64,000 nucleotides of DNA from a virus (IMGVR_UViG_3300045581_000334:12695-76694); one strand, 5' to 3'; counted from the stretch's first letter, positions 4,678-50,456 are shown. Notes: generated by a model from the letters alone, not told the origin. Translations and numbers: made by a program.

Positions 4678-5252
4678 ACCTGCTCCAATGAAATATTAAC
4701 GCTCCAATATGGCTGAAGACCTCTTTTAACTAGAGTGCAATCAAAGCCACTAAATACTACTGTGTATATATTTGAAGTAGAAGAGTTTGCTGCAGAAGCT
4801 GATTCCGATGTATTTATTTTAATTCTAAATGATGTTCTTCCTGCTAAACTTTCATAGAATGTTTTTAGGTCTTCCGCTCCCCAAGCTCCGTCTACTGTTT
4901 CATTTCTAAACGAAGGCAACATTGACCATGAAGTAGAAAACGTTTTCTTGTCTGCAATAATAAATTCTCTTAATGTTCCATTAGCCATTCTTGTAGACTG
5001 CTTAATTCTATTTGTGTTGATAGATAAATCTGATCTATTATGTTCTGTTACTCTTCTAAAAGCTAAAGAGTCTTTGTTAGATACAATTAAATTATTTGTA
5101 GTAGCTACCGAAAGCGGATAAGTTTGGCCTCCAGCTGTTCTATCTGTAGTTTCTCCAGGATATCTAAAAGCAGTTGAGCCTGGAGTCATAAACAGTAGAT
5201 CTTTTGCTTCTATGTATAGGACTGAGCCTTTGGGTAAATTTTCAAAACTCAT
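4674..5252 (-). CDS. Distal tail (Dit-like) protein
   Basis: Directly downstream of the tape measure; RMANGTLR...FSTSWS motif. Confidence 0.65.
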   Translation of the reverse strand: MSFENLPKGSVLYIEAKDLLFMTPGSTAFRYPGETTDRTAGGQTYPLSVATTNNLIVSNKDSLAFRRVTEHNRSDLSINTNRIKQSTRMANGTLREFIIADKKTFSTSWSMLPSFRNETVDGAWGAEDLKTFYESLAGRTSFRIKINTSESASAANSSTSNIYTVVFSGFDCTLVKRGLQPYWSVNISLEQV

Positions 5253-35070: not shown

Positions 35071-36129
35071 TTATCCAACCACCTTTTCTATGGAATATTT
35101 TATATCATTCCATATATCTTCCATGTCTTCACACCCTACAGACAGTCTAATCAGGTTGTGGGGGACCAGGGGACTCTCTAGTGGCCAACGCCTTCTTCTT
35201 TCCCACAAAGACTCTACGCTTCCAAGGCTTGTAGCATATCCTATTAGTTTTGAAGAATAACATATCTCATCAACTTCGATTTCTGTTGCATCAATTTCAA
35301 AAGATACGACTCCTCCAAATCCAGGATAATATACTTTGTTAACTTTAGGATGGTTTTGTAGTCTCCAAACCAATCCTCTTGCGTTATTCTCAGACTTTTT
35401 AAATCTTAAAGGGAAAGTTCTTATGCCTCTCAAAGAAAGCCAGGATTCAAATGGTGCTGCTATAGTTCCGTTTATTTTTCTTTCAAACTCTATCTTCTCA
35501 AAAAGGTCATTGTTATTTGTAGATATAGATCCAATTAATACGTCGCTATGACCCGATAAATATTTTGTAACGGAATGTAATGAAATATCTGCACCCAGTT
35601 TAAGTGGCTGCTGATTAATTGGTGTCGCAAATGTATTATCCACTACAACAATAATATTTGATTGTTTAGCGCAATTTATTAAAGTTTCTAATTCTGCAAT
35701 ATCTAACATTGGGTTTGTAGGAGATTCTATCCACAACATATATGCACCTGCAAGATTTTCTATAACTTCTTCTGTATTTGCTATATCTACAAATCTTGCA
35801 ATTATTTTATTTTCATCATTTAGTTTTTTTAATGTGGCGTTTACTCCAGCATAACCTTGGTTTGATGCAACCACAATATTTCCAACTGGTACCGTTGATA
35901 AAATAGAACTCACTGCAGACATCCCAGAGCTAAAAGCTAATGTCTTTCCGCCCTCTAAAGATGATATTGCATTTTCTAAATCTTTACAGTTTTCATTTCC
36001 ATATCTTGCATAGCCAATATCTCCTCCAGCATAATATGTAGAGTTAAGAGATATTGGAGTATTGAATGGACCATCTGGACTTCTATCTGGTCTTCCAGAA
36101 TGTATAGATCTAGTATTAAATCCTGTCAT
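35071..36129 (-). CDS. Cys/Met metabolism PLP enzyme (cystathionine gamma-synthase/lyase-like)
   Basis: YARYGN, FSSGMSA, ESPTNP, VDNTFA, HSVTKYLSGHSD (PLP Lys) and LIRLSVGCED. Confidence 0.92.
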   Translation of the reverse strand: MTGFNTRSIHSGRPDRSPDGPFNTPISLNSTYYAGGDIGYARYGNENCKDLENAISSLEGGKTLAFSSGMSAVSSILSTVPVGNIVVASNQGYAGVNATLKKLNDENKIIARFVDIANTEEVIENLAGAYMLWIESPTNPMLDIAELETLINCAKQSNIIVVVDNTFATPINQQPLKLGADISLHSVTKYLSGHSDVLIGSISTNNNDLFEKIEFERKINGTIAAPFESWLSLRGIRTFPLRFKKSENNARGLVWRLQNHPKVNKVYYPGFGGVVSFEIDATEIEVDEICYSSKLIGYATSLGSVESLWERRRRWPLESPLVPHNLIRLSVGCEDMEDIWNDIKYSIEKVVG

Positions 36130-36130
36130 T

Positions 36131-37129
36131 TTATCCCCATATCGCTGCCGAGCATTTTGTACACATGTCTGAATACGACTTAAGTATCATATCAGATCTT
36201 TCTTTACTATTCCAAATATCTTTTAGGCTAGTAGAATTTACGTTTCCATATACAGTTTCAAAATCATAGTCTGCACAACAAATAAACAGATCTCCGTTTG
36301 GATTTATGTGTACCCACTCATTTGTCCTGCTTCTTATTTCTATTCCGCCATTACACCCTATAACCTTTTTATTATCAGACTTTAAATATTTATCAATGGC
36401 AAACCTTTGCGTAAGTATTCCATATTTTTCTAAGTGTGCAGCTCTGTCATATAAATGATGAGAGGTGCTAATATCTAAACCTGGAAACATTATTTTAAAC
36501 TGTTCTGCATCTCTTGCCAACTCTCCGTTATCATCATCTAGGTCTACTTTTGGCGCATTGCTTAAAAGGTCTAACCATCCACCATTTTTTGTTAGAGATG
36601 AATTATTTACCCCATTTACCATAAGGTGCAAATAAGGATTAAAAAGACCACTATTCTTTTTTTCATTTAAATATTTAACATTAGACACAACTTTATCAAA
36701 AAGTTTTATGTTCATATTAACGTATCTAGACCATCTTTCTGGTTCGGAAGCTGGTATGTTTAACAAGATTCCGTTAATAACGTCTTGATACTCTATAAGT
36801 AAATCAACTTTTTTCGGAGTTAACGCTACCCCGTTTGTTAAAATATTTGTTTTAAATCCATACTTTTTATAAACCTGCAGCATTTCTTCAAGGTGCTTAT
36901 AAAGTAAAACTTCATTATAATTTGCAGAGTATGCTAAGTTTAAATTTGGATCTACAAAGTCTCCCTTGCCTTCTGTCAACTGTCTCAATATATTATCTAA
37001 TTCAGATATCTCCATGTCTCTTATTGCTGATTTAGGGTTTCCCGCATAAGAAACTGGGCAGAACCAACAGCCAGCATTACAAAGTCCATTGACATCAATT
37101 TGAACTGCTTTAATCATATAATTATTCAT
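36131..37129 (-). CDS. Radical SAM protein with SPASM/twitch domain
   Basis: CNAGCWFC, LTNG and C-terminal GC...NGDLFICC...GNV...IWNS...CTKC. Confidence 0.9.
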   Translation of the reverse strand: MNNYMIKAVQIDVNGLCNAGCWFCPVSYAGNPKSAIRDMEISELDNILRQLTEGKGDFVDPNLNLAYSANYNEVLLYKHLEEMLQVYKKYGFKTNILTNGVALTPKKVDLLIEYQDVINGILLNIPASEPERWSRYVNMNIKLFDKVVSNVKYLNEKKNSGLFNPYLHLMVNGVNNSSLTKNGGWLDLLSNAPKVDLDDDNGELARDAEQFKIMFPGLDISTSHHLYDRAAHLEKYGILTQRFAIDKYLKSDNKKVIGCNGGIEIRSRTNEWVHINPNGDLFICCADYDFETVYGNVNSTSLKDIWNSKERSDMILKSYSDMCTKCSAAIWG

Positions 37130-37727
37130 ACTGTTTTCTATCCCAATAATATTTTTTATAAAAATTATTTTCTTTATATTTATTATTTCTAGTATCACAT
37201 TCTTCTAAAAGATTTTCATTTAATTCCATTGTCCATTGTTCTCTCATAAAAGGAATTATTTGAAATATAGGAGTTCCAGCTTTAATTATTCCTTCGAACC
37301 CCTCTTTTATAAAAAATGGAAGATTTCCTTTTGGCATTATAGAGTCTGAATCTACAATAGCCGACAAGGTTGTAAATGGCAAATCGTATCTGTTTATTGG
37401 ATGACAAATTAATATACTATAATCTTTAGGAGTTTTTATAATGTACGGATTTTTCCATAAAAATTGTCTGCTATCATGATTAAATGGTATTGGCATATTT
37501 CCAATACTGCTACTATCACGCAATCCAATAACATCTAAATCATTGTTTAAATCTATGTCTTGTTTTAAAACCATAGAGTATCCAGAAATAAATCCATCTA
37601 TAAAAGGCATGCAATGTTTTAGCATTAATGAACTTGGTTCATCTTTATACCATTGTGGTATTATTTTTTTTGCAGGTACAAGACTCATCTTTGTCTCATT
37701 TTCTTGACAGTAAAATTCAAGCTGCAT
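37122..37727 (-). CDS. DUF6065-like protein, paralogue of 31318..32079
   Basis: PQWYK, KHCMPFIDG..SGY, PINRYDLPF and IKAGTPIFQIIPF.RE.W. Confidence 0.65.
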   Translation of the reverse strand: MQLEFYCQENETKMSLVPAKKIIPQWYKDEPSSLMLKHCMPFIDGFISGYSMVLKQDIDLNNDLDVIGLRDSSSIGNMPIPFNHDSRQFLWKNPYIIKTPKDYSILICHPINRYDLPFTTLSAIVDSDSIMPKGNLPFFIKEGFEGIIKAGTPIFQIIPFMREQWTMELNENLLEECDTRNNKYKENNFYKKYYWDRKQYE

Positions 37728-37734
37728 GTTAAGA

Positions 37735-38358
37735 TTATATCTTATAGACTAATGCTTGTCCAGTAGGTAATTCTAAAATATTATCTACTCCAAAGAAATC
37801 ATTCATTGCTTTTCGTGCTCCTGGGGTTTTATCTGATCCATAATCGTCACATATCAATACCCCGCCTTTAATTAGTCTTGGCCAAAAATATTCTATAGAA
37901 TTTTTGGTGGGGTCATATAAATCAACATCTATATTAACATAGGAATATTGTTCATCATTAAGTTTATCAAATACCTCTGGGATCCAGCCTTTATATAAAT
38001 CTACATTATCAAAGTTTTTTAATATTTTCTCTGCAAATGATATACTTATAGATAATTTTTTAGACTTAAAATAATCGCTATCATATTCACCAGGTTCTGA
38101 GACACCCTCAAAAGAATCTACCCCTATGAATTTGTTTTTACAAAGATCCGCTACAAAAAACATAGACATTCCAGCATAAACACCGCACTCAGCAAAATTT
38201 CCTTTGTCTTTTTGCTGAGTGGCTAGTTGTCTTAATATGTATAATCTGGCATATAAAGAATTATTAATTTCATTATTTATTCCTGCTAGAATGTTAAATT
38301 GATTAAACAATGAAACAAACTTAGCATCTTGTTGCCAAGATGAGATATATGAATCCAC
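37735..38358 (-). CDS. TylF/MycF-family O-methyltransferase
   Basis: AECGVYAG, DSFEG, KGW, IDVDLY and GGVLICDDY motifs. Confidence 0.9.
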   Translation of the reverse strand: MDSYISSWQQDAKFVSLFNQFNILAGINNEINNSLYARLYILRQLATQQKDKGNFAECGVYAGMSMFFVADLCKNKFIGVDSFEGVSEPGEYDSDYFKSKKLSISISFAEKILKNFDNVDLYKGWIPEVFDKLNDEQYSYVNIDVDLYDPTKNSIEYFWPRLIKGGVLICDDYGSDKTPGARKAMNDFFGVDNILELPTGQALVYKI

Positions 38359-38359
38359 G

Positions 38360-39838
38360 TTACGAAATTACTAAATAATTTCCAACTAGGAACCAAGCAT
38401 GTGGGGCTGTTCTAATTTCATAAACATCTCCCTCATCAAGTATTTCAATCTTTTCAACTGGAACATATGAAACCTTTCCAGAGTTGCTATCAATATTTAC
38501 AAGAATATCTCCTACAACAATATCTTTAGGTTCTTTAGTACCAATTCCAACTTCATTTTTAATAAAGATTGGCTGATATGGTGAGAATAAATTTTCACCA
38601 TCATTTAATTTAATTAACTGCTTTTGGCTTAACTCGCTCTTAACAACTTCTGTTTCAATAAATTCAACATTATCAGATATTGACACGTTGTTTAGTGTAT
38701 CAGAATTTGTTAAATAACTTGGGTCAACTGTAAGCAAAATATCTCCTACCTTAATGTCTTCAGCATTAACATATCCATTGCTGGTAAGGATTTTAGATTT
38801 TGCATAGACACACTTATATCCCTTAGAGAAAGTTGGGAAGTATGGTGGGAAGAATGGGAAGAATGGGAAGTACGGGAAGAAAGGTGGGAAGAATGGGAAG
38901 AATGGGAAGTACGGGAAGAACGGTGGGAAGAATGGGAAGAATGGGAAGTACGGGAAGAACGGTGGGAAGAATGGGAAGAATGGGAAGTACGGGAAGAACG
39001 GTGGGAAGAATGGGAAGAATGGGAAGAATGGGAAGAACGGTGGGAAGAATGGGAAGAATGGGAAGAACGGGAAGAACGGTGGGAAGAATGGTGGGAAGAA
39101 CGGGAAGAACGGTGGGAAGAATGGGAAGAACGGTGGGAAGAATGGTGGGAAGAACGGTGGGAAGAACGGGAAAAACGGTGGGAAGAACGGTGGGAAGAAC
39201 GGTGGGAAGAACGGTGGAAAGAACGGTGGGAAGAACGGAGCTAAAGTTGTTATGCTGCTAGTTGTTGCTCCAGCAGAAGGCCCATTAGCGTTTGTTGCGG
39301 TAACAGTATAAGTTTGCGAAGTTCCTGCGGTATCTGAAATTACTACTGATGTTGCTGAGGCTGACAAGTCTCCTGAAGAAGATCCATCGCTACCAGTAAC
39401 ATTGTGTTTAGTTATTGCTTTTCCTCCGTTTGCCCCAATAGTCCAGCTAATTGTATTTTGATTAATTCCAGCTGTAGCAGTAACTGATTGTGGAGACTGA
39501 GGAACTGTAGTAATTGGAACAGATGAACTTGTTGTAGGAGAAGAAGATCCAGCATTATTTGATGCAACTACGGTGAATGTATAACTACCTGCAGATAAGC
39601 CAGTAAATGTATAAGATGTATTAGTGGTTGTTTGGCTTGATGATGCAGGAGTTGTAGTAATTGTATAAAGAGTTGCTGGTGGAGATGCTGCTGGCAAAGA
39701 CCAGCTTAAAGAAGCGGCTCCATTTCCGTATGGTCTACCTGTTCCTACGTCGGAAGCAGATAATCCAGTTACAGCATTTGGCTCTAAGAAATTATCTTGA
39801 GCTGAAGACTTTCTTCCTCTTCTTTTACTTGATGCCAT
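38360..39838 (-). CDS. FN3 x2 + Phe/Pro repeat + C-terminal Hint domain protein
   Basis: Two FN3 domains (LSWSLP...YTFTGL...YTFTVVASNNAG), a ~135-residue F/P/Y-only tract, then a Hint domain beginning CVYAKSKILT. Confidence 0.85.
   Translation of the reverse strand: MASSKRRGRKSSAQDNFLEPNAVTGLSASDVGTGRPYGNGAASLSWSLPAASPPATLYTITTTPASSSQTTTNTSYTFTGLSAGSYTFTVVASNNAGSSSPTTSSSVPITTVPQSPQSVTATAGINQNTISWTIGANGGKAITKHNVTGSDGSSSGDLSASATSVVISDTAGTSQTYTVTATNANGPSAGATTSSITTLAPFFPPFFPPFFPPFFPPFFPPFFPFFPPFFPPFFPPFFPFFPPFFPFFPPFFPPFFPFFPFFPFFPPFFPFFPFFPFFPPFFPYFPFFPFFPPFFPYFPFFPFFPPFFPYFPFFPFFPPFFPYFPFFPFFPPYFPTFSKGYKCVYAKSKILTSNGYVNAEDIKVGDILLTVDPSYLTNSDTLNNVSISDNVEFIETEVVKSELSQKQLIKLNDGENLFSPYQPIFIKNEVGIGTKEPKDIVVGDILVNIDSNSGKVSYVPVEKIEILDEGDVYEIRTAPHAWFLVGNYLVIS
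38363..38812 (-). other. Hint (intein-like) autoprocessing domain
   Basis: Block A C...ILTSNGYVNAEDIKVGD, KDIVVGD repeat and block F VEKIE...VYEIRT...FLVGNYLV; no terminal His-Asn. Confidence 0.8.
38828..39239 (-). repeat. Tandem 9/12-nt coding repeats (FFP / FFPP / YFP)
   Basis: Plus strand shows GGGAAGAA(C/T) and GGTGGGAAGAA units for ~410 nt. Confidence 0.97.
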
Positions 39839-39864
39839 CTTCTTCTCCTTTTATATTAATTCTA

Positions 39865-42800
39865 TTAGGCTGACAAATCTCCAGCTAGCAACCAAGTATT
39901 TGTTGCTACTTTTGTTAATGTTGCCGATGAATAAGTTGTTCTTAACTTTAGCCCTGGTGTAGCTAGAATTGAAACTGTACCGTCTGCGGCTGCAAAACTT
40001 GCACCCGTTCCTGCAGATTGATAAAAATCAATTGAAGTTCCTACTGGGTAGGCTGTTGTTGAATTTGTTGGTACTGTTATTACATATGTTCCAGATACTG
40101 GTATTAATTGATCTCTTAATGAGAGTCCTCCAGTTGACAAATTGTATGCTGCTGAAATTGTTGTACCAATTGTAGTAAGTGAAGGAACGCCTTGTTTTGT
40201 CTGAGTTCCATCAGTAAATACTACGCCTGCAACTTCAACGTTATTTACTGCAAGATTGTCTAGAGATCCCTGTCCAAAATTTACAGTTGTTGCTGGCTCA
40301 TCTGCTACATCCTTGAAAATCTTCCACTTGGAATCAGAAACGTCTCTTACAATACCTGCGTGTTTTGCTGTGCCGTCTGTATATGCTACAACAAGACCAA
40401 GGTCTACGGTATTTGCCGCATTTTGATGAGCAAGCTGAACCATGTTATCTTCAATAACAATAGATGTTGAGCTTGCATTAAATGTTGTACCATTTACTGT
40501 TAAATTTCCGTCAACAGTCATATTGCCGTCAACTTCTAGGTTTCCAGTAAATGTTTGATTAGCAGCATTCTTATATGCTAATTGTGATGTATCAGAAATT
40601 CCGTGTACTGATGTTGTTGCTGAAGTATGAGATGTTACAGTAGAAGAAGCAGCCTTAGCATCAATCTGTGTTTGTACTGCTGAGGTTACTCCATCTAAAT
40701 ATCCTATTTCAGTTGAGCTAACATTTCCAACAGATGTTGTGGACGGAAGTACTACCGTACCAGTAAATGTTGGAGAAGCGATTGGTGCATAAGTTGAAGC
40801 AGCTGTTGCTGATGCAAGCTTAGTGTCAATCTGTGCCTGAATTCCAGAAGTCACTCCATCTAGATATCCAATTTCTGTTGAGCTAACATTTCCAATTGCT
40901 GTGGTGCCAGGAAGTGTTACCGTACCAGTAAATGTTGGGCCAGAAGAAGGAGCCTTGGATCCAAGATCTGATACCAGGTTGGCAATCTTAGACTGTTCAA
41001 TTTCTGCTGAAGCATTAATATCAGCATTTACAATTGTTCCATTTGCAATCTTTGCAGAAGTTACTGCTCCGTCATTAATTTTTTCAGTTGTTACAGCCAA
41101 GTCATTGATCTTGGCAGTTTCTACTGCCGAAGATGCTAATTGTGCTGCAGCAACTGCTGAGTCTGCAATTTTATCAGATGTTACCGCATCATTTGCAATT
41201 TTAGCTGTTGTAACATTTAAATCTGTAATTTTTACAGTAGTTACAGAATCTGCAGCAAGTTTATCTACTGTCACAGAAGTGTCTGCAATTTTTGCTGTAG
41301 ATACAGAACCTGCAGCAAGCTTATCGCTGGTTACAGATAAATCATTTATCTTTCCTGTAGTTACAGCCAAATCAACAATTTTTGCTGTAGAAACTGTATT
41401 GTCTGTTGGAGTTCTGGTATCAGACAAACGAGCATCATCTGTATACACAAGATTTGCTGTATTTGTTATACCATGTATGCTGGTTGTATCATCAGCATGT
41501 GATGTTAAAGCTGTCCCAGCAGTTGTTTCTGCAGCAGATTGAGCTGCTGATGCAGCATTATCTGCATAAGACTTGGTTGCCAAATCTGCAGTATTTGAAA
41601 TACCATGTACGCTAGTTGTGTCTGCGCTGTGATTGCTTAATTCTGTTGCTGCAACTGTGCCAACATTATCTGCATAAGCTTTTGTTGCAAGAAGAGAAGT
41701 ATCTGCTATTCCGTGAACATTATAAATAGTATTATTATGTCCAGTTAAATTAGACGATGCAGTATTCCCATATCCTTCTATTAAATTATCTACATATGCT
41801 TTATTGGTAGCATGCAAAGCTCCTACTGGATCGCCGCTTAGTGTTAAAGCTCCAGTCATCGTATCCCCAGCCTTAGAAACCTTAGTTCCAATGCTGTTGC
41901 TTACAGTAGTCGCAAAACTTGGATCGTCTCCAAGTGCTGCTGCCAACTCATTAAGAGTATTTAATGCAGCTGGTGAAGAATCTACTAAATCTGCAACCTT
42001 TTGGTCAGCGTATGCCTTAGCATCCACCTCAGCTTGATCTGCGTAAGCTTCATAAGCATTAGTAATTGCTGTTTCACGACCAGCAACATAAGCTTCATAA
42101 GCAGTGGTGATTGCTGTCTCACGAGCATCAGTGTAAGCTTTAGCATCTACTTCAGCTTGATCTGCGTAAGCTTGATAAGCGGTGGTAATTAACCCTTCAC
42201 GTGTATCTGTATAAGCTTTAGCATCTCCTTCTGCCTGATCTGCATAAGCTTCATAAGCAGTGGTGATTGCTGTCTCACGAGCATCAGTGTAAGCTTTAGC
42301 ATCTACTTCAGCTTGATCTGCGTAAGCTTTTGTAGCAAGGTCAGCTGTATTTGCTATACCATGTACGTTAGTTGAATCATTTTCGTGATTCGAAAGATTT
42401 GTTGCAACAGTTGTAAAGAATGTAGGGTCATCTCCAATTGCTGCTGCTAATTCATTTAAGGTATTTAATGCACCTGGTGCTCCATCTAGCATGGCAGTTA
42501 CTGCCGCATTTACTGCGTCATTAATTGCTTGAGTTGCTGTTAGCTCTTTCCAGTTTGCATTTGTGCTTGCAGGGGTTGATTGAAGCACATATGATGTTCC
42601 ATTGTCTGACTGAATTGCAATATCGCCTGGTTCAACAGTAAGGGCAAGACGAGCTGCTTGGTCTGCAACAGAATGAACTGTAATTTTTGCAAGTGGCGGC
42701 AAGTTCTGAGCTTTAATGTAGCCACTGGCATCTAATTGTGGCACTCCGTCTGGCTGGCCATAATCATCTGTAGTTAATGGTGTACCATCATTATTGACGA

Positions 42801-42957
42801 TAGCATAATCTAGATTTCTCCAGTTAGTTGAGCCATCACCAATCTTAATTCTATTTGTGTCTGTTTCAATAGCAAGCTCGCCTGCTGCTAATTGTGGATT
42901 TGCGTCATACCAATCTTGGTACTCGCCTCGTCTAAGTTGAATTCTTACTGTTGCCAT
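39865..42957 (-). CDS. Long tail fibre-like protein
   Basis: N-terminal IQLRRG...NPQLAAGE...KIGDG.T.W, two LNTLNELAAA-DDP motifs, 10-aa VTTAKIAD repeats and C-terminal PGLKLR...WLLAGDLS. Confidence 0.85.
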   Translation of the reverse strand: MATVRIQLRRGEYQDWYDANPQLAAGELAIETDTNRIKIGDGSTNWRNLDYAIVNNDGTPLTTDDYGQPDGVPQLDASGYIKAQNLPPLAKITVHSVADQAARLALTVEPGDIAIQSDNGTSYVLQSTPASTNANWKELTATQAINDAVNAAVTAMLDGAPGALNTLNELAAAIGDDPTFFTTVATNLSNHENDSTNVHGIANTADLATKAYADQAEVDAKAYTDARETAITTAYEAYADQAEGDAKAYTDTREGLITTAYQAYADQAEVDAKAYTDARETAITTAYEAYVAGRETAITNAYEAYADQAEVDAKAYADQKVADLVDSSPAALNTLNELAAALGDDPSFATTVSNSIGTKVSKAGDTMTGALTLSGDPVGALHATNKAYVDNLIEGYGNTASSNLTGHNNTIYNVHGIADTSLLATKAYADNVGTVAATELSNHSADTTSVHGISNTADLATKSYADNAASAAQSAAETTAGTALTSHADDTTSIHGITNTANLVYTDDARLSDTRTPTDNTVSTAKIVDLAVTTGKINDLSVTSDKLAAGSVSTAKIADTSVTVDKLAADSVTTVKITDLNVTTAKIANDAVTSDKIADSAVAAAQLASSAVETAKINDLAVTTEKINDGAVTSAKIANGTIVNADINASAEIEQSKIANLVSDLGSKAPSSGPTFTGTVTLPGTTAIGNVSSTEIGYLDGVTSGIQAQIDTKLASATAASTYAPIASPTFTGTVVLPSTTSVGNVSSTEIGYLDGVTSAVQTQIDAKAASSTVTSHTSATTSVHGISDTSQLAYKNAANQTFTGNLEVDGNMTVDGNLTVNGTTFNASSTSIVIEDNMVQLAHQNAANTVDLGLVVAYTDGTAKHAGIVRDVSDSKWKIFKDVADEPATTVNFGQGSLDNLAVNNVEVAGVVFTDGTQTKQGVPSLTTIGTTISAAYNLSTGGLSLRDQLIPVSGTYVITVPTNSTTAYPVGTSIDFYQSAGTGASFAAADGTVSILATPGLKLRTTYSSATLTKVATNTWLLAGDLSA
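42000..42330 (-). repeat. 66-nt tandem coding repeat (AYADQAEVDAKAYTDARETAITT)
   Basis: About 4-5 near-identical copies visible at DNA and protein level. Confidence 0.85.
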
Positions 42958-43003
42958 TTTATTTTATACCCCTATATTAGAATTATACCACTTGCTTATT
43001 TTA

Positions 43004-43324
43004 CTAGGAAATGACTCCTGAATCAAACGTAAGAGCAAATGATGTACTGCTTGGGGAACCGCCATCGGCATATTTCGTAGCCTCAGTCACTACCCCGTCT
43101 CCACCAACTGAATATATTGGTGAACCATTATAATCAATAGCCAAGCCAATATCATTGAATCCTATATCATTTGAGTCTGATATATCAATCCATTGACCAT
43201 TAACCTGAATTCTTAATTTATTATTATCTGTATTAAATACTAGGGGTACTGAACCTAGTGTAACCTGTCCAGACTGGACTACTAGATTATTCTTAACCTT
43301 AAAATCTCTATTTGTTGTTGCCAC
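43004..43324 (-). CDS. Small fibre-associated structural protein
   Basis: N-terminus MATTNRDFKVKNNLVV shared with 43392..45002; DGGSP motif. Confidence 0.65.
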   Translation of the reverse strand: MATTNRDFKVKNNLVVQSGQVTLGSVPLVFNTDNNKLRIQVNGQWIDISDSNDIGFNDIGLAIDYNGSPIYSVGGDGVVTEATKYADGGSPSSTSFALTFDSGVIS

Positions 43325-43348
43325 GAGTTCAATATCCCCCGAATTTTA

Positions 43349-43373
43349 GGTGGGGGATTTTGTGTCCCCCACC
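43349..43373 (-). terminator. GC-rich hairpin after 43392..45002
   Basis: GGTGGGGGA-N7-TCCCCCACC. Confidence 0.65.
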
Positions 43374-43391
43374 AATTTAATTATTTAGTTG

Positions 43392-45002
43392 TTATGCTAT
43401 TAATGTTCCAGCAATTGTTACAGTGCTGTTGTTATTTAGAGTTGTTACTCTAATTCTAAAATGAGTTCCATCATGATCTGCTGTAATTGTTGACAAAGAT
43501 CCGTTTGTTCCAACAACTCCATATTCTGTCATATGAACATTATTGCTTGTATCTGAAGTTACAAGGATTTCAGATAACTCTGTGTGGGTACCATTTGCAA
43601 TTTTAACGGTGAATTTACCGCTCTTATAAGCTGTATGGTTCCATTGATAAGCAGTTACTGTACTAGCTGTAGGTACAGAGACTGTGGCTGCAACATTTTT
43701 AGCAACACCATTAAAGTCAATTGCTGCATATACTGGTTCTGCTACTGCATTACCAGCAAGTATTGCTCCGTCTGTATAAGAATTTGCTGAAGCAACTGCA
43801 TCAGATTCTGCTTGATCTACATACTGCTTTGTAGCTGCCTCAAGAGCATTTACTGGATCTGCATGTAGTACCAGAGCGCCAGTCATTGTTCCGCCAGCTG
43901 TTGCTAGCTTAGTTGCAATGCTGTTTGCTACTGTAGTAAAGTAATTTGCATCATCATTAATTGCTGCTGCAATTTCATTTAATGTATCAAGAAGTGCTGG
44001 GGCACCATCTACAAGAGCTGAAATTTGGCTGCTAACCCATGTCTTATCAGCAGTAACTGTTGTATCAATTGAGAATTCACCAGTTCCTGAATTGTATGAT
44101 AAACCATTACCAGCATTTACTGATCCACGAGCACGAGTATCTGTATAGTAAAGATTGGATGCACCCTCTTCAATATCATCTGTGTCTAAGGCATTTATTG
44201 CGCTATCTGTATAAGAAGCAGCGTTTCCTTCAGCTGTAGATGCTGCGCCATATGCATCATATGTATTTGCAGATACATTAATAATTCCGTCTGCGGCATT
44301 ATATGTTATTCCAGTTCCTGCAGATACTGCATTTCTTGCACGACCATTTGTAAAGTATAAATTAGATGAACCTTCTTCAATGTCATCTGAATCTAAAGCA
44401 TCTACTACTGTACTTACTGCATTATCGGCGTAGGTTTTTGTAGCAATTGTATTATCTACAGAAATTACACCTGTTGAGTTGTCATAGCTAATTCCTGTTC
44501 CGCCAGAAACTGCTTGACGAGCTCTTGTGTCAGTAAAGTATAAATTAGATGTTCCCTCTGCTAAATCATCAGTATCAGAATCTGCTACTCCGTTTTCAGC
44601 AGTAATTGTAAGACCAGCACCAGTGCCAGTAATTGTAATATTTGTTAAGTTAGCATTTGTTAATAAATCTGCTGCAGAAGTTTTAGCACGAGCATCCGTA
44701 AAATATTGATTTGTACCTTCTGCTAAATCACCAGTATCATGATTTGAAATATCTGAAACTGTACCTGTTACGTTACCAGTTAGATTTGCTGTAATTGTTC
44801 CAGCTGAAAAATTACCAGAACCGTCACGCTTAACAACCTTGTTAGCTTCATTTGCGGAGGTTGCGGTACCGCCAATAAGATCGATAATATAATTTTGATC
44901 ATCGGTCTTCTTTGTTAATATATCAAAACCGCCTACGGTAGCGCTACTTCCTTCAACTACCAGGCCATTTTTTACTCTAAAATTTTTATTTACTGTTGCC
45001 AC
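43392..45002 (-). CDS. Fibre/whisker-like virion protein
   Basis: Repeated DTDDLAEGxxNLYFTDxRAR units; LDTLNEIAAA motif. Confidence 0.8.
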   Translation of the reverse strand: MATVNKNFRVKNGLVVEGSSATVGGFDILTKKTDDQNYIIDLIGGTATSANEANKVVKRDGSGNFSAGTITANLTGNVTGTVSDISNHDTGDLAEGTNQYFTDARAKTSAADLLTNANLTNITITGTGAGLTITAENGVADSDTDDLAEGTSNLYFTDTRARQAVSGGTGISYDNSTGVISVDNTIATKTYADNAVSTVVDALDSDDIEEGSSNLYFTNGRARNAVSAGTGITYNAADGIINVSANTYDAYGAASTAEGNAASYTDSAINALDTDDIEEGASNLYYTDTRARGSVNAGNGLSYNSGTGEFSIDTTVTADKTWVSSQISALVDGAPALLDTLNEIAAAINDDANYFTTVANSIATKLATAGGTMTGALVLHADPVNALEAATKQYVDQAESDAVASANSYTDGAILAGNAVAEPVYAAIDFNGVAKNVAATVSVPTASTVTAYQWNHTAYKSGKFTVKIANGTHTELSEILVTSDTSNNVHMTEYGVVGTNGSLSTITADHDGTHFRIRVTTLNNNSTVTIAGTLIA

Positions 45003-45019
45003 TCTGACAACCCCCTTAT

Positions 45020-45571
45020 TTAAGCCTTAAGCGCAGTCCGCACAAATCTGGCTGTAACAGCCGAAGTTGTGGGGGTCACGCATAAACTAATTATACCTGA
45101 ATTTACTTCAAATGTGATGTCAGCTAAACTATTTGAAGTATTTGATATGATGTTGGATTCTGATACATTAATATCAGTTCCATCATTCAATAGCAGGTAG
45201 TCAGATGAAACATATTCACTACCTTTTGTTATTTGTAAGCTGTATTTAATTGTTCTATAAAGGCTAGCAGACCAATTATCTATAGCTGTTTTGTTTTCTA
45301 TTCCAGTTATAGTTAAATCGTTATTGCCTTCCAGCCCTAATAATTCTAAAGTCGCATCTGATTGATTGTCTAAATCAAAAAGTTGTGACTCTAAAGATGA
45401 TATTTTATAGTCTAAAGATGTAGTTACATTTGAGCCATCTACTCCAACTTTAGCTTGTAATGCTTCTAACGCATCGTTTACATTTCCATGCAAAGCGGCA
45501 TGGCCTGCCATGCTGTCTGTGCCTTGTGGATTATTTAAATTATCTAAACTTGCTGGAAAATTAGTTGCCAA
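45020..45571 (-). CDS. Virion structural protein
   Basis: MATNFPASLD...NDALEALQAKVG; C-terminal domain similar to that of 43392..45002. Confidence 0.7.
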   Translation of the reverse strand: MATNFPASLDNLNNPQGTDSMAGHAALHGNVNDALEALQAKVGVDGSNVTTSLDYKISSLESQLFDLDNQSDATLELLGLEGNNDLTITGIENKTAIDNWSASLYRTIKYSLQITKGSEYVSSDYLLLNDGTDINVSESNIISNTSNSLADITFEVNSGIISLCVTPTTSAVTARFVRTALKA

Positions 45572-45890
45572 CTTGGCCTCCGTCTAGCAACGTCAAGTTT
45601 GCAAAACTTGGATCGCTATATACTGAATCTGGATCACCGCCATCAAGTCCAATTATAACAGGAATTGTTTCATCTACAGACTCAATGTTGTTGATATCAT
45701 ATGTAAAATTAATTGTTTCTTGTATATCTATAGTATGAACGTCTCCGTCATAACTATGGGTATGCATGTAAAATGGAGCAGGCTGTTTGTCCATAGACAG
45801 CTCCCAAACTTGCCCGTTCCATTTCCATGAAACATTGCCACTTGTATGCTTTTGGTTAAGTGTTGGATTTAAAGGAAAAATTGTGGGCAT
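45561..45890 (-). CDS. Small structural protein
   Basis: FPLNP...WKWNGQVW, HTHSYDG and DGG motifs. Confidence 0.6.
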   Translation of the reverse strand: MPTIFPLNPTLNQKHTSGNVSWKWNGQVWELSMDKQPAPFYMHTHSYDGDVHTIDIQETINFTYDINNIESVDETIPVIIGLDGGDPDSVYSDPSFANLTLLDGGQVGN

Positions 45891-45917
45891 CTTCTAATTA
45901 TACCTCTAAATATATTA

Positions 45918-46205
45918 TTACCACTTATTAAGTGGACATTTTGCATCTTTTAATTTAGTTTTTAAAAACATAAAGCATCCACATTGCTTACAGGTAGATG
46001 TTTCTTTTATTAATTCAGGGCAAGAAAGGCATGTATTAAATCTTTGTGACGACTCTTCTTCTGAAGATGTAGAAACTGATGGGTCAACTTTATGCCAGGG
46101 CATACCGTAATTATTAGATAAATTTAAAGCCTCTAAATCTTTTTCTATTTCATCAGGCTTTTTAGGCTCTAAAAAATACTCAGATAGATCTATACTGTTT
46201 TCCAT
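45918..46205 (-). CDS. Cys-rich small protein (DUF6171-like)
   Basis: RxxxCxxCP...CKxCGCxMxxK...CPLxKW. Confidence 0.7.
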   Translation of the reverse strand: MENSIDLSEYFLEPKKPDEIEKDLEALNLSNNYGMPWHKVDPSVSTSSEEESSQRFNTCLSCPELIKETSTCKQCGCFMFLKTKLKDAKCPLNKW

Positions 46206-46233
46206 AATTAAATTATATCATTCTGTAATATGT

Positions 46234-46998
46234 CTAGCAAGGGTAGTTTCCTCCTCCGCCTCCGCAAGATCTGACATCTGAAGTTATGCATGACCCAAAT
46301 CCTATAAATGTAGGAGAGGAACATATTTGATATGTTCCATCTGAACAAAGTTTCCTGGTTCCCTCATAAATTCCTTGATATGAGTCCTCGCCATTACATG
46401 TAGGAATAATAACTTGATATGGCTCGCAATTTCCACAACTAAAAGATTGGAATGATGGTGGGAAGAATGGCGGGAAGAATGGGAATGATGGTGGGAAGAA
46501 TGGCGGGAAGAATGGGAATGATGGTGGGAAGAATGGCGGGAAGAATGGGAATGATGGTGGGAAGAATGGCGGGAAGAATGGGAATGATGGTGGGAAGAAT
46601 GGTGGGAAGAATGGGAATGATGGTGGGAAGAATGGCGGGAAGAACGGTGCAAAGTAAGGTGGGAAGAACGGCGGGAAGAATGGGAAGTACGGCGGGAAGA
46701 ACGGTGGGAAGAACGGGAAGAATGGGAAGAACGGTGGGAAGAACGGCGGGAAGAATGGAGGCGCTACATATCTATAATAGACAAAAGGAACAGTATCTCC
46801 CAATAAAGAAACTGAGTTTTCTGAAACTCCTTGACTTTGAATTAAATTATCAAGATTAATATTTGCAGTATCTATATATGATTCTGTATAATTTAACCCT
46901 AAAGAATTTAAATCGTTTTTAGCTTGAGACCTAGATTTTCCAGATAAATTTGGAACATTTCTTTTTCTTCTTCCGTGTCTACCAAATAGACTAAACAT
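46234..46998 (-). CDS. PASTA-like + Phe/Pro repeat + Cys-rich tip protein
   Basis: VPNLSGKSRSQAKNDLNSLGL (PASTA-like), a ~105-aa F/P tract, then an 8-Cys C-terminus. Confidence 0.8.
   Translation of the reverse strand: MFSLFGRHGRRKRNVPNLSGKSRSQAKNDLNSLGLNYTESYIDTANINLDNLIQSQGVSENSVSLLGDTVPFVYYRYVAPPFFPPFFPPFFPFFPFFPPFFPPYFPFFPPFFPPYFAPFFPPFFPPSFPFFPPFFPPSFPFFPPFFPPSFPFFPPFFPPSFPFFPPFFPPSFPFFPPFFPPSFQSFSCGNCEPYQVIIPTCNGEDSYQGIYEGTRKLCSDGTYQICSSPTFIGFGSCITSDVRSCGGGGGNYPC
46446..46759 (-). repeat. Tandem coding repeats including 33-nt units (PFFPPFFPPSF)
   Basis: GGGAATGATGGTGGGAAGAATGGCGGGAAGAAT repeated about 5-6 times. Confidence 0.97.
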
Positions 46999-46999
46999 A

Positions 47000-48991
47000 T
47001 CATACGCTCAAATCGCCCATGGCGACCCAAGAATTTAATGCTCTTTTCACCAGGGTTGCTGAACTCCATTTAGCTCTCAATTTCAATCCAGGAGTTGCGT
47101 CTATGGTAAATCCAGATCCTCTAAGAGTAACCTGAGAATCACCTGTTTGTAATATATTAACCGTAAACCCTACTGCAAATGAAGATGAGTCTACTATGTC
47201 TAAAAATCCTCCGCCAGACATTTCAATAAGTTTTCCTAAATCTCCAGGAACAACAATATAGGTTGCTGCCTGTGGATTTCTTACTGTAAGCTTATCAAGC
47301 TTAGTGTCAAGTGCTGTTTGTGTGGCAGTTGAAACTGGTTTGTTAGCATCAGATGTATTGTCTACATTTTCAAGACCAACCATTGATTTTGTAATTCCAG
47401 AAACTGTACCAGTAAAGGTCGGAGAAGATAGTGGAGCATAAGTAGCAATTGCGTTGGATTGAGTCAAGTATGTAGAAGAAGCTAAAGAAGAATCTAATTT
47501 ATTTCCTATAGCATTACTTATTGTTGTAGCGTAATTAGGATCATCTCCTAATGCTGCCGCCAACTCATTAAGAGTATTTAAAGTTTCTGGAGCGGAGTCT
47601 ACAAGATTAGATATTGCAGTATTGACATAAGTTTCAGTAGCATATCCAGTCAAGCTAGGTATTACTGGCTTATCCGTTAAATCATTATAGCTAGTTATAA
47701 TCTCTGTATCTCTTGCAATTGAATCTGGAATTTGAATGTCTGGTATCTTTGCGTTTCCGTCTAATGTTGCAACTCCATCTTGAACTCCTCTTTGGGATAA
47801 TGGAATAAACTCACCAGTTGTATTAGACAAGTTAAATGCTAAGTCGTCTAATTGTTCTTGAACTGAACTTGTTGTGCCGCTTAGTCTTTCTACATCTATA
47901 GATGTTAAATTAGCAGAAGGTAGAGTGTGCCACTCTGTATCATAATCGATTGCAGAAGATTTTATTAAAAATTGTCCAGCAGTTCCACCTTCTGATACGC
48001 CTGGTCCAGATTCACCTTGAATGCCTTGTGGGCCTTGTAAACCTTGCTCACCCTGAATTCCTTGTGGCCCTTGTAATCCTTGCTCACCCTGAATTCCTTG
48101 TTGACCTTGAATACCTTGTGGACCAGGTTCGCCTTGCTCTCCTTGAATACCTTGTGGACCCTGGTCTCCTTGTGGACCCTGAATTCCTTGTAATCCTTGT
48201 GGTCCAATTTCTCCTTGTATCCCTTGAGGTCCCTGTGGGCCAACTTCACCCTGAATACCTTGTTCTCCTTGGATTCCTTGCGGTCCTTGAGGTCCTTGTG
48301 GTCCAACAATTTGTCCAACATTATTCCATAGAGATCCGTCCCAAACATAAAGATCTCCGTTATCTTGATTAATATAACTATCACCAATTACATTACCTGT
48401 ATTAGGTAAAGAGGTTTCATTAGTTACAGATCCCTTTAATACTATAGATGTTCCAGCAGAGCCTTGTATTCCTTGCTCTCCCTGAATTCCTTGTGGTCCT
48501 TGAGGTCCCTGTGGGCCAACTTCACCCTGAATACCTTGTGGGCCCTGAATGCCTTGTGGACCAGATTCACCTTGTTCGCCTTGAATTCCTTGCGGTCCTT
48601 GAATTCCTTGTAATCCTTGTGGTCCCTGTAAACCTTGTTCACCTTGTGGCCCCTGCGGTCCTGGTATTCCTTGAGTGCCACCTGCTGGTCCCGCTGGACC
48701 TGCTGGGCCTTCTGGACCAAGGGAAACTTCTACCCAGTATGTGCCATCATAAACATAAAGTTTAGCGTCATCATTGTCGTACCAGATTTTTCCTTCATAA
48801 GATATTTCTGGAGATGGCAGTGTTGAACTTACATGTGCAAATGCTTGTGCACCTAAATCCTGCCATTGATTTCCTGAGTAATATCTTGCTTTTTGAGATA
48901 CTGTATTAAAATACAGATCTCCCTCAGAGGCAGATAAAGGGTCAAACTCTAGTCCAGATAAGTTTAATGGGACTTTAAATTTACGAGCCAC
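47000..48991 (-). CDS. Collagen-like tail fibre protein
   Basis: Two (G-x-Q)n collagen tracts, LNTLNELAAA motif and C-terminal PGLKLR...WVAMGDLS. Confidence 0.9.
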   Translation of the reverse strand: MARKFKVPLNLSGLEFDPLSASEGDLYFNTVSQKARYYSGNQWQDLGAQAFAHVSSTLPSPEISYEGKIWYDNDDAKLYVYDGTYWVEVSLGPEGPAGPAGPAGGTQGIPGPQGPQGEQGLQGPQGLQGIQGPQGIQGEQGESGPQGIQGPQGIQGEVGPQGPQGPQGIQGEQGIQGSAGTSIVLKGSVTNETSLPNTGNVIGDSYINQDNGDLYVWDGSLWNNVGQIVGPQGPQGPQGIQGEQGIQGEVGPQGPQGIQGEIGPQGLQGIQGPQGDQGPQGIQGEQGEPGPQGIQGQQGIQGEQGLQGPQGIQGEQGLQGPQGIQGESGPGVSEGGTAGQFLIKSSAIDYDTEWHTLPSANLTSIDVERLSGTTSSVQEQLDDLAFNLSNTTGEFIPLSQRGVQDGVATLDGNAKIPDIQIPDSIARDTEIITSYNDLTDKPVIPSLTGYATETYVNTAISNLVDSAPETLNTLNELAAALGDDPNYATTISNAIGNKLDSSLASSTYLTQSNAIATYAPLSSPTFTGTVSGITKSMVGLENVDNTSDANKPVSTATQTALDTKLDKLTVRNPQAATYIVVPGDLGKLIEMSGGGFLDIVDSSSFAVGFTVNILQTGDSQVTLRGSGFTIDATPGLKLRAKWSSATLVKRALNSWVAMGDLSV

Positions 48992-49001
48992 TATTAAACT
49001 C

Positions 49002-50456
49002 CTATCCGATTACTACTACTCTATACTCTCCAGCTGAAGGTGCTACAGCAAATTTAATAGTTACCGCCGACGTTGAAGTGTGTTCAACATCTGCTTCTAT
49101 TTGGGCATATGGAGAAGCAACCTCATAAATTTGAACAACAACATCTTTTGTGCCGAGGTTGTGTGTTACTGTATATGTTGTAGCTGATGTGCTAAGTGTT
49201 TCTTTATATTTTCTTGTTATCTCGTGATAGTTTGTTCCATCATTTGATAATGTCCACTGATCAGATGTTTCATTCCAAAGGATCTGTACATCGTCTTCTG
49301 TGCCTCTATGAACCTTTATGCCTGCATCTACAGAGGGAGCCTGAGTATGAGGCATATCGCTATTCAAATTAATTATATTGTCTGATATATTAACCTGAGT
49401 AGTATTTACAGAGTTAATAGAGCCTGTTACATTTAAGCTTCCATTAACTTGAAGGTTTCCGCCTATTGTTGTATCTCCAGTAACGTCTAACCCACCATTT
49501 AGGTCAGTAGATCCTGTTACTTCAAGATTGGATACTGCAGTAACTTCACCATTAAATGTGGCTGTGCCATCAACAACAATAGACGAATTGAATGTGGCTG
49601 CACCAGTTACGTCTAAAGTGCTTGCAAAGTCTGCTGCTCCTGTAACATCTAATGTTCCAGAAACATCTGAGTTTCCATTTAAATCGAGATTTCCATTAAT
49701 TTGAACATCATCATTAAATGTTGATGTTGAGTTGGCTGTAAATATTCCATTAACAGTAGAAGTAGAATTTGCTGTTACTGCACCATCAAATTGAGATGAT
49801 CCATCTACCTCTAAAGTAGAATCAAGTTTTACAGCTCCACCAACATCTAAAGTACCTGTTGTTATGTCAACATTTCCATTTAATGATGTATTTCCAGAAA
49901 CTGTAAGTGTATTATTTAGTGTTGTTGCGCCATCAACATCTAGTGTTGATTGTAATTCTGTTGCACCATCAACATGTAATGTGCTATTTAAGTTTGCAGA
50001 ACCATTTAATGTAGTTCCACCCGTAACTTCTAAAGTTCCGCCAATGTCTACATTGCCAGTTGTGTCTAATGTATCAGCATCAATATTTGTTACATTAAGT
50101 TGCGATGGAAGAGAAAGGGTTGCATCTCCATTAGCAGCTTTTGTAACAGTAATTTGATTTGCTGTGCCAATAATATCGGCAACATCATGCTTATGATCAG
50201 CATGTGCAACATAAGGTGAAGATCCATGACTTACAGAATCTCCAAATTTTATTCTAGTTGTATAATTACTATCTCCAAAATCACCAGAGGCTGTTAGCCA
50301 TTCTGTTCCATTCCAAAAATATAAAAGATTATCGTTTGAGTTATAATAAATTTGACCAGTAACTGGATTGCTTGGTGCAGTTCCTAAGTTCTGGATTCTG
50401 GCATTGAGTAGTTCATTCTTATTTAGGTCAATGCTAACCAAAAATTTTCTTGCCAT
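49002..50456 (-). CDS. Fibre protein with beta-helix-like repeats
   Basis: 12-aa LxVxG repeats; THNLGT C-terminal motif. Confidence 0.75.

Follow-up and report, generated by a model that had tools for sequence, protein, structure and literature searches.

The receptor-binding gene of an uncultured phage is usually unknown. In the Stf/Tfa cassettes (lambda stf-tfa, Mu S-U, and P2 H-G), the C-terminus of the fibre and the product of the next gene diverge as one unit, and the partner binds the fibre end. In T-even phages such as T2, S16, and PP01, the tip gene, gp38, lies directly after the distal fibre gene, gp37, and the N-terminus of the tip protein holds the end of the fibre. The distal part of gp38 joins an unusual low-complexity extended-helix region to hypervariable segments that set host range (PMC12032242). 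Here, we analyze a 64,000-nucleotide (nt) stretch of an uncultured lake phage (IMGVR_UViG_3300045581_000334:12695-76694; the window) that carries two fibre genes, fibre 1 and fibre 2, which end in homologous domains (GDL knobs) and are each followed directly by a gene for a protein with a Phe/Pro-rich (F/P) repeat, FP1 and FP2. The IMG/VR record of this virus comprises 76,694 nt and is estimated to be 64% complete, and the module region sits among minus-strand late genes.

We propose, with a probability of about 0.55, that each gene pair encodes a single fibre built from two polypeptides, in which the knob would hold the downstream distal protein through a clade-specific N-terminus. The fibre gene would supply the proximal anchor, the shaft, and a terminal β-sandwich knob of ∼100 amino acids (aa), while the next gene, probably cotranscribed and in the second pair probably also translationally coupled, would supply the distal piece, attached to the knob by its short N-terminus. 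The distal piece would begin with globular spacers (two FN3 domains in FP1 and a PASTA domain in FP2), continue as an aromatic and proline-rich low-complexity stalk, probably extended and polyproline-like, whose length would change through repeat slippage, and finish in a small end of hypervariable sequence (in FP1 a Hint domain, in FP2 a Cys-rich knot). This end is exchanged between phages and would be the most likely site of contact with the host envelope. Gene order and its conservation, the joint divergence of knob and leader, the identities of the domains, and the exchange of tips are observed, while physical docking, its stoichiometry, the presence of the distal proteins in the virion, the conformation of the F/P stalk, and any self-cleavage by Hint are inferred.

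Fibre genes and the genes that follow them

The original prediction for this locus, made from its sequence, had described two fibres with different shafts and homologous C-termini, each directly preceding an F/P-repeat gene whose product has a basic start, and our analysis agrees on both counts. The open reading frames (ORFs) were found on the minus strand, with the leaders MASSKRRGRK and MFSLFGRHGRRKR and the fibre C-terminal strings present as first described. The C-termini of fibre 1 and fibre 2 are 43% identical over 81 columns (BLASTP, E 4e-10), their shafts have only short fibre motifs in common, and FP1 and FP2 have nothing in common outside the repeat. FP1 is separated from its fibre gene by 26 nt, and FP2 starts 1 nt past the fibre 2 stop codon (TGA-T-ATG). 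In all six frames of the whole window there are only two F/P-rich ORFs and only two GDL-ending ORFs, and they form two adjacent pairs. A scan of the coding strand gave no promoter or terminator match inside the 26-nt junction; in the promoter and terminator scans, sites were no more frequent than in shuffled sequence.

We searched IMG/VR with the two knobs, a leaderless Hint homologue, and the FP1 head and obtained 275 related loci (L004-L278). Among 195 GDL fibre ends, the next gene encoded in 112 cases a type A partner, defined by the leader G-[RK]-[KR]-S-x-A-x-[DN]-[ND]-F-[LI]-x-P followed by FN3, and 94 of these were F/P-rich. Type B partners (18 ends, 8 F/P-rich) have a basic stub and a PASTA domain and start either overlapping the fibre stop codon or 1 nt past it; type C partners (16 ends, 15 F/P-rich) begin with MPIIPGVSASSDG... 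and continue with FN3; and type D partners (∼16 ends) begin with MIL[SA][TS]HG... and have no F/P repeat. A ribonucleotide reductase (RNR) gene lies ∼150 nt on after another 16 ends, and nothing follows on that strand after 7 to 10. Reduced to 89 nonredundant ends, the followers were 45 type A, 9 type B, 8 type C, 7 type D, 10 RNR, 6 other, and 4 none, placing a partner with a clade-specific N-terminus (types A to D) behind 69 of the 89 knobs. In the reverse direction, 77 loci found with the FP1 leader plus the first FN3 had enough upstream DNA to be read, and all 77 carry a GDL-ending ORF 7 to 37 nt upstream.

The gene-neighborhood survey was a check that the original prediction had suggested, and adjacency turned out to be conserved both ways (77/77 reverse and 69/89 forward). 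The adjacency of knob and partner is real and strong, but neither strictly requires the other. No knob-partner fusion, which would have served as Rosetta-stone evidence, was present among the 195 fibre ends. The early emphasis on F/P repeats as the essential cargo was not borne out, as the partner behind 7 of the 89 ends is of type D and lacks the repeat, and F/P proteins are also found behind a non-GDL protein. One of the unclassified non-F/P followers, in L088, is a 2-oxoglutarate (2OG)-Fe(II) oxygenase gene that begins 3 nt after the GDL fibre.

Divergence of knob and leader

The conserved leader of type A is 14 aa long. Its Gly(-12) and Pro(0) never vary, and 58 of 59 nonredundant homologues have Phe(-3), while the synonymous codons are mixed. 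A leader that is conserved as protein and variable in its codons argues against a purely nucleic-acid element, and a DNA-level cause of the conservation, such as a regulatory element or a recombination linker, is disfavoured by the same observation. Over 50 nonredundant type A modules the median pairwise identity was 0.33 for the shaft, 0.59 for the knob, 0.64 for the leader, 0.42 for FN3, and 0.35 for the C-terminus, so that knob and leader together form the conservation peak of the module.

Knob and leader identities are correlated with an r of 0.73, and the partial r was still 0.69 after FN3 and shaft had been regressed out (0 of 500 permutations). The corresponding partial r was -0.01 for shaft and leader and 0.09 for knob and FN3. 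The leader therefore tracks the knob across the intergenic gap more closely than it tracks the FN3 domain to which it is fused. In a knob tree, which has few columns and many open forks, type A requires 4 changes against 29.9 after shuffling, and types B and D require 2 each. Where one genome carries paralogous knobs (this window, L093, and L183/L184), these are grouped by the type of their partner and not by their genome of origin, and the fibre 2 knob lies within a clade whose members precede PASTA-headed proteins.

These patterns suggest a docking interface between knob and leader. Its specificity would not lie where the original prediction had put it, in a basic leader: the type A motif is not defined by basic character, the type C leader MPIIPGVSASSDG... 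is not basic, and the head of FP2 is, judged from its homologues, a basic stub with a PASTA domain.

Fold and distribution of the GDL knob

We modeled the last 130 residues of fibre 1 as a single chain with AlphaFold2 (AF2), using 52 aligned homologues. The predicted local distance difference test score (pLDDT) was ∼97 over the last 100 residues, and the predicted model has an XD1-type β-sandwich fold over the whole knob domain. The top structural match was the C-terminal knob of the Pa223 capsid spike gp52 (PDB 9ny6; VIA-align Z 13.0, root mean square deviation [rmsd] 1.9 Å over 92 residues). It was followed by a baseplate protein of Klebsiella phage KP1 (Z 9.5), by CBA120 TSP4 residues 80 to 182 (7rej; VIA-align Z 9.0, rmsd 2.8 Å over 88 aligned residues), and by CpaA (6o38) and StcE (4dny). 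Foldseek added T4 gp9 and gp10 (1qex, E 5.7e-3; 5iv5 and 2fl8, weaker). Residues 80 to 182 of TSP4 form its XD1 module, described as a spacer whose function is unclear, whereas partner trimers are bound by XD2 and XD3 (PMC8825819). The structural neighbors listed there for XD1 are those found here for the knob (CpaA 6o38 and StcE 4dny). A reading of the TSP4 match as a known docking fold, that is, as XD2 or XD3, was dropped for this reason. The fold places the knob among the modules of trimeric phage appendages, and a docking role does not follow from the fold alone. In favour of a two-part fibre, we counted that trimeric virion appendages are the source both of FN3 domains and of the structural relatives of the knob.

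The domain is very widespread. A profile search of 1.84 billion representatives returned 34,403 proteins (E ≤ 1e-3), 17,827 of them with E ≤ 1e-10; each represents a protein cluster at 50% identity. Single-copy matches end exactly at the C-terminus, and many proteins have 2 to 22 tandem copies. Very long arrays occur in P0014-P0017, with 22 copies in a protein of 3206 aa and 16 copies in one of 2401 aa, which makes the domain also a beads-on-a-string shaft element. The off-terminal matches that were inspected were tandem arrays or, in P0101, a pair of copies with a different domain behind them at the C-terminus, and no fusion to a partner was among them. The knob had no match in Pfam at E values up to 10 or in NCBIfam at E values up to 0.1, and the sole trace of the curated gp9/gp10 family was an ESM Atlas neighbor cluster with PF07880 in 11% of its members. 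The PHROG matches of the knob lie at the very C-terminal end of families 21510, 8780 (minor tail protein), 21978, and 18179 (virion structural protein), and against PDB sequences its profile gave only a weak match to a crAss-like head fibre (E 0.06). The GDL domain is thus a widespread, unnamed β-sandwich repeat domain of ∼100 aa and not the dedicated socket that had been claimed at first; its 34,403 clusters, its arrays of up to 22 copies, and its XD1-type spacer or distal-knob fold all speak against such a restricted role.

Several of these observations weigh against a knob that holds the downstream protein. Knob and leader are only ∼25 nt apart, so co-inheritance through linkage accounts for part of their co-divergence. 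The knob has ∼4 acidic and ∼4 basic residues (counted from the translation), and simple charge complementarity with a basic leader, which we had considered, is not evident from its sequence. Its fold is that of the XD1 spacer and not that of the XD2 and XD3 docking modules (PMC8825819), and given the internal tandem copies not all GDL domains can be sockets. About one-fifth of the nonredundant GDL fibres have no adjacent partner gene. Conversely, in two complete relatives whose only GDL fibre precedes RNR, an FN3x2-F/P protein with yet another N-terminus is encoded elsewhere, 40 nt after a collagen-like protein of 236 to 239 aa without a GDL domain.

These points bear on a different arrangement, in which the FP proteins would attach elsewhere, to the baseplate or the shaft, or act as independent whiskers, with the knob as the true receptor-facing end and adjacency reflecting co-regulation and cassette linkage. 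The best fold match of the knob is itself a distal one: according to the Pa223 preprint, the gp52 knob is the TNF-like end of a trimeric spike, and its authors suggest that it may be a host-recognition element. GDL fibres without a partner, F/P proteins behind non-GDL proteins, and the use of the domain as a general repeat module would all fit as well. However, no part of the fibre is better conserved than the knob, although receptor-binding ends usually show the reverse, the leader diverges in step with the knob rather than with the adjoining FN3, and every one of the 77 reverse-survey loci has the fibre upstream. We consider attachment elsewhere rather unlikely and retain docking on the knob as the preferred explanation.

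Exchange of the distal tip

The C-terminal ends of the partner proteins vary between modules that are otherwise nearly identical. In L005, L007, and L010 the knobs are 100% identical, the first 190 residues of the partners are 98 to 99% identical, and the F/P tracts are of equal length, while the tips are unrelated Cys-rich peptides with 12 to 19% identity. We found 124 pairs with knobs at least 85% identical, and in the 120 of them with comparable tips the median tip identity was 20%, with 80% of these pairs below 40%; the F/P tracts of the 124 pairs differ in length by a median of 22 residues. The tips include Cys knots with 4 to 10 Cys, short Gly/aromatic tails, and three subtypes of Hint domain. 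The idea of an exchangeable docked tip thus survives in part: the paired module is there and its tip is swapped between near-identical copies, whereas the proposed details of docking, a basic leader in a dedicated socket, did not hold.

The leader MILSTHG is common to the partners of the GDIAS knob clade, which differ in their globular domains, among them one with a Pfam match to the arabinofuranosidase-B catalytic domain and one with a match to Gly_rich_2. In PHROGs the globular domains of type D align to inner or C-terminal parts of larger structural proteins, which we read as distal modules that have probably been split off into a separate gene here.

Could the downstream proteins instead be assembly helpers of the Tfa or T4 gp38 chaperone type, acting transiently on the knob to fold or trimerise it and absent from the mature particle or present only incidentally? 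A gene position directly after the fibre, tight coupling, and co-divergence of the fibre C-terminus with the partner N-terminus are the signature of Stf/Tfa cassettes too, and one type D partner matches a PHROG annotated as tail fiber assembly (2.8e-10). Their content, however, is adhesin-like rather than chaperone-like: the partners measure 150 to 530 aa, carry FN3, PASTA, lectin-like, Cys-knot, and Hint modules, and have hypervariable ends, and among the Pfam, PHROG, and NCBIfam hits of FP1 and FP2 there is no family of the Tfa type. A helper role seems to us improbable.

Architecture of FP1 and FP2

The features of the two modules are listed in Table 1. The FP1 leader has an AF2 pLDDT of 51 to 68, indicating that it has no fold of its own. 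The FN3 assignment passes the Pfam gathering score for PF00041 (37.4 bits against a cut-off of 25). For PASTA (PF03793), FP2 itself scores 19.6 bits, under the cut-off of 23.2, and the assignment is made through its homologues, 10 of which, out of 11 aligned, match PASTA, the best at 1.2e-16. On this basis we read the head of FP2 as a basic stub and a PASTA domain. Cys-rich tails comparable to that of FP2 are found in many homologues.

Table 1. Features of the two fibre modules, with positions in the window
Feature	Position	Strand	Description and evidence
Fibre 1 gene, 1030 aa	39865..42957	-	Mtd_N-type N-terminus (Pfam Mtd_N 1.2e-13), long repetitive shaft, C-terminal GDL knob; many PHROG tail-fibre families
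GDL knob of fibre 1, last ∼105 aa, end ...WLLAGDLSA	39868..40182	-	AF2 pLDDT ∼97, VIA-align, Foldseek; β-sandwich, XD1 / TNF-like knob type
Fibre 1-FP1 junction, 26 nt	39839..39864	-	TAA, then 26 nt with AGGAG 7 nt before ATG
FP1 gene, 492 aa	38360-39838	-	ORF directly after fibre 1
FP1 leader, aa 1-20	39779..39838	-	type A motif ...G-R-K-S-S-A-Q-D-N-F-L-E-P
FP1 two FN3 domains, aa 21-197	39248..39778	-	Pfam fn3 3e-09; AF2 pLDDT ∼97; Foldseek tandem-FnIII E 1.9e-10
FP1 Phe/Pro tract, aa 198-339 (142 aa)	38822..39247	-	F 52%, P 40%; tandem array, 39-nt period
FP1 C-terminal Hint (intein/BIL-like) domain, from Cys342	38363..38815	-	phmmer 2lwy E 0.011; family profile; AF2 pLDDT ∼93
Fibre 2 gene, 663 aa	47000..48991	-	collagen-like shaft (Pfam Collagen 1.6e-28), C-terminal GDL knob
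GDL knob of fibre 2, end ...WVAMGDLSV	47003..47317	-	BLASTP against knob 1, E 4e-10; tree position
FP2 gene, 254 aa	46234-46998	-	ORF directly after fibre 2
FP2 basic N-terminal stub, aa 1-13	46960..46998	-	ORF translation and junction
FP2 PASTA domain, aa ∼14-73	46780..46959	-	Pfam and homologues
FP2 Phe/Pro tract, aa 74-186 (113 aa)	46441..46779	-	F 43%, P 42%; tandem array, 33-nt period
FP2 Cys-rich tail, 68 aa, 8 Cys	46237..46440	-	composition

The F/P repeats are in-frame tandem arrays of ∼9 copies each with 89 to 90% matches, and Phe plus Pro make up 92% of the FP1 tract and 85% of the FP2 tract. The F/P frame is the real one, because in the FP1 ORF the repeat is preceded by two FN3 domains and followed by a Hint domain. 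In the AF2 model the FP1 tract is coil with a pLDDT of 40 to 59. In relatives of FP2, repeats of YHAP, PYYNPYSN, YYAAPQ, or GFSHYAG can take the place of Phe/Pro at the same position, and the F/P repeat is one flavour of aromatic low-complexity stalk. Literature searches gave no paper for the string PFFPPFF and nothing relevant for PASTA domains in tail fibres. Two contigs that are 99% identical to the 3' end of FP1 (L001 and L002) both start ∼100 nt before the Hint domain, inside the repeat, which suggests that assemblies tend to break at the tract and that tract lengths in databases may be unreliable.

So hydrophobic a tract, together with the peptidoglycan-type PASTA head of FP2, might also suit nonstructural proteins that act on the membrane or wall, in lysis, superinfection exclusion, or envelope remodeling, and are expressed late along with the fibres. 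Neither N-terminus, in translations read by eye, has a hydrophobic stretch such as a signal peptide or membrane anchor would contain, none appears in the AF2 model of FP1, and the genes sit inside the fibre gene block. A structural role agrees better with the FN3 domains and with how strictly the genes are paired with fibre knobs, and we regard a nonstructural function as highly improbable.

A profile of 23 Hint domains homologous to that of FP1 matched, among PDB sequences, the bacterial intein-like (BIL) domain of Clostridium thermocellum (2lwy, 3e-11) and several inteins (1e-8 to 1e-3). Position 1 of the FP1 domain is Cys342, which follows ...GYK, and Cys occupies this position in all rows of the FP1 and canonical subtypes. 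The block B motif Thr-x-x-His is missing in FP1, which reads S-P-Y-Q with Gln in place of His, while the sister subtypes have T-E-T-H or S-x-S-H. FP1 also has no C-terminal His-Asn and no C-extein, ending in ...NYLVIS at the stop codon. The canonical subtype of its relatives runs Cys1...TxxH...HNK and ends in ...THNK, and a third subtype runs Ser1...SxxH...(H/Y/F)D with a tail of 5 to 15 aa behind it. Many Hint caps in relatives (L183-L190, L096, L137, L152, and L184) end in ...HNK, with just one Lys behind the His-Asn, or in ...HNKKGAFQG.... The FP1 domain aligns over its full length with the BIL or Hedgehog-type Hint fold (2lwy) and retains Cys1 but differs from it in the block B residue and the missing terminal His-Asn.

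Neighboring genes and host

Four genes directly follow FP1. They encode a TylF-like O-methyltransferase (37735-38358), an unassigned 201-aa protein, a radical-SAM/SPASM enzyme (36131-37198), and a pyridoxal phosphate (PLP) enzyme of Cys/Met metabolism (35071-36129), and tailoring of Pro-rich or Cys-rich proteins by such neighbors is conceivable. The gene after FP2 (45918-46205) encodes a 95-aa Cys-rich DUF6171 protein (Pfam 1.9e-06).

Taking all of these features as one system, the aromatic and proline-rich stalk with its reactive or knotted end could represent a new kind of phage adhesin. The Hint cap would excise itself and leave an activated C-terminus on a very hydrophobic Phe/Pro rod, which would then attach, covalently or through hydrophobic contact, to the fibre or the envelope of the host; the repeat or the Cys tip would be modified by products of the neighboring 2OG-oxygenase, radical-SAM, and methyltransferase genes, for which hydroxylated Pro/Tyr-rich adhesive proteins offer a loose analogy; and knob and clade-specific leaders would form a general plug-and-socket code for tens of thousands of phage fibres. 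We regard this combined scheme as a long shot, and we keep to the simpler two-polypeptide fibre.

The fibre-like genes of the window come in pairs with similar N-termini. Those at 43004-43324 and 43392-45002 begin with MATTNRDFKVKNN... and MATVNKNFRVKNG..., and the genes at 47000-48991 and 49002-50456 resemble each other in the same way, one of them reading MARKFKVPLNL.... This suggests alternative fibres that share one proximal attachment site. A 3092-aa ORF at 5249-14527, downstream of the head genes, is presumably the tape measure. The only cultured relatives of a 587-aa protein of the window (23829-25592) are in Streptomyces phages, at 24% identity, which together with the PASTA domain suggests an actinobacterial host.

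Implications

If the knob does dock the leader, the GDL domain would be a very common, unnamed adaptor domain, with 34,403 clusters and no Pfam or NCBIfam model. The match between leader type and knob clade would then provide a rule for finding the host-contact proteins of uncultured phages. A change of specificity would amount to the swap of a 10- to 170-aa tip on a fibre that is kept, and the module would be a natural scaffold for tip exchange. Undescribed virion chemistry is suggested by the Phe/Pro stalk together with the Hint caps and the putative tailoring genes next to them. Since the knob-plus-partner arrangement is present in cultured Gordonia phages, the question of docking is directly testable.

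Comparison with known systems

In 50,697 records of cultured phages, neither megablast with the 10.6-kb region nor tblastn with the FP1 head gave a match, and the knob is the only part of the module with cultured relatives, which are distant. At 31 to 43% identity, they form the ends of minor tail proteins in 145 Gordonia phage records, in some Brevundimonas phages, and in PhiJL001. In Gordonia phage Stultus, gp38 ends in ...WVVAGDLT and is overlapped by gene 39, whose product, annotated as a minor tail protein, begins with a short leader rich in Arg. Unlike FP1 and FP2, Stultus gp39 has no F/P repeat, FN3 domain, or Hint domain; PHROG 7114 covers it only in its C-terminal half, and Stultus gp38 has no match to that family.

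Among the branched receptor-binding complexes with gp10-like XD modules (T4 gp9/gp10, CBA120 TSP4, and G7C gp66), the knob matches XD1 of TSP4 and T4 gp9/gp10 in fold. However, XD1 is proximal, whereas the GDL knob is the last domain of the fibre, can be tandem, and has no Pfam match. The Pa223 gp52 knob is likewise a terminal domain, in its case of a trimeric β-helical appendage, but the two are 11% identical, and the Pa223 domain sits on a capsid spike and not on a tail fibre and has no partner protein described.

At the level of gene organization, a separate gene directly downstream of the distal fibre gene, the trait that recalls gp38 of T-even phages, was found in the window and in the surveys, and the FP modules also share with gp38 a low-complexity region and a hypervariable end. 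They have no sequence relation to gp38, no gp38 family match, and a Z score of only 2.3 to 6f45. Whereas gp38 is a glycine-rich polyglycine-II sandwich, the FP proteins have a Phe/Pro region, spacers of the FN3 or PASTA kind, and a Hint domain or Cys knot at the end, and the fibre end that precedes them is an XD1-like β-sandwich and not a gp37 tip. As in the Stf/Tfa cassettes, knob and downstream gene travel and diverge together, but Tfa proteins, as small chaperones, lack modules of the Ig-like, PASTA, repeat, and Hint kinds. The module described here resembles both the gp37-gp38 tip and the Stf/Tfa cassettes and is a member of neither family.

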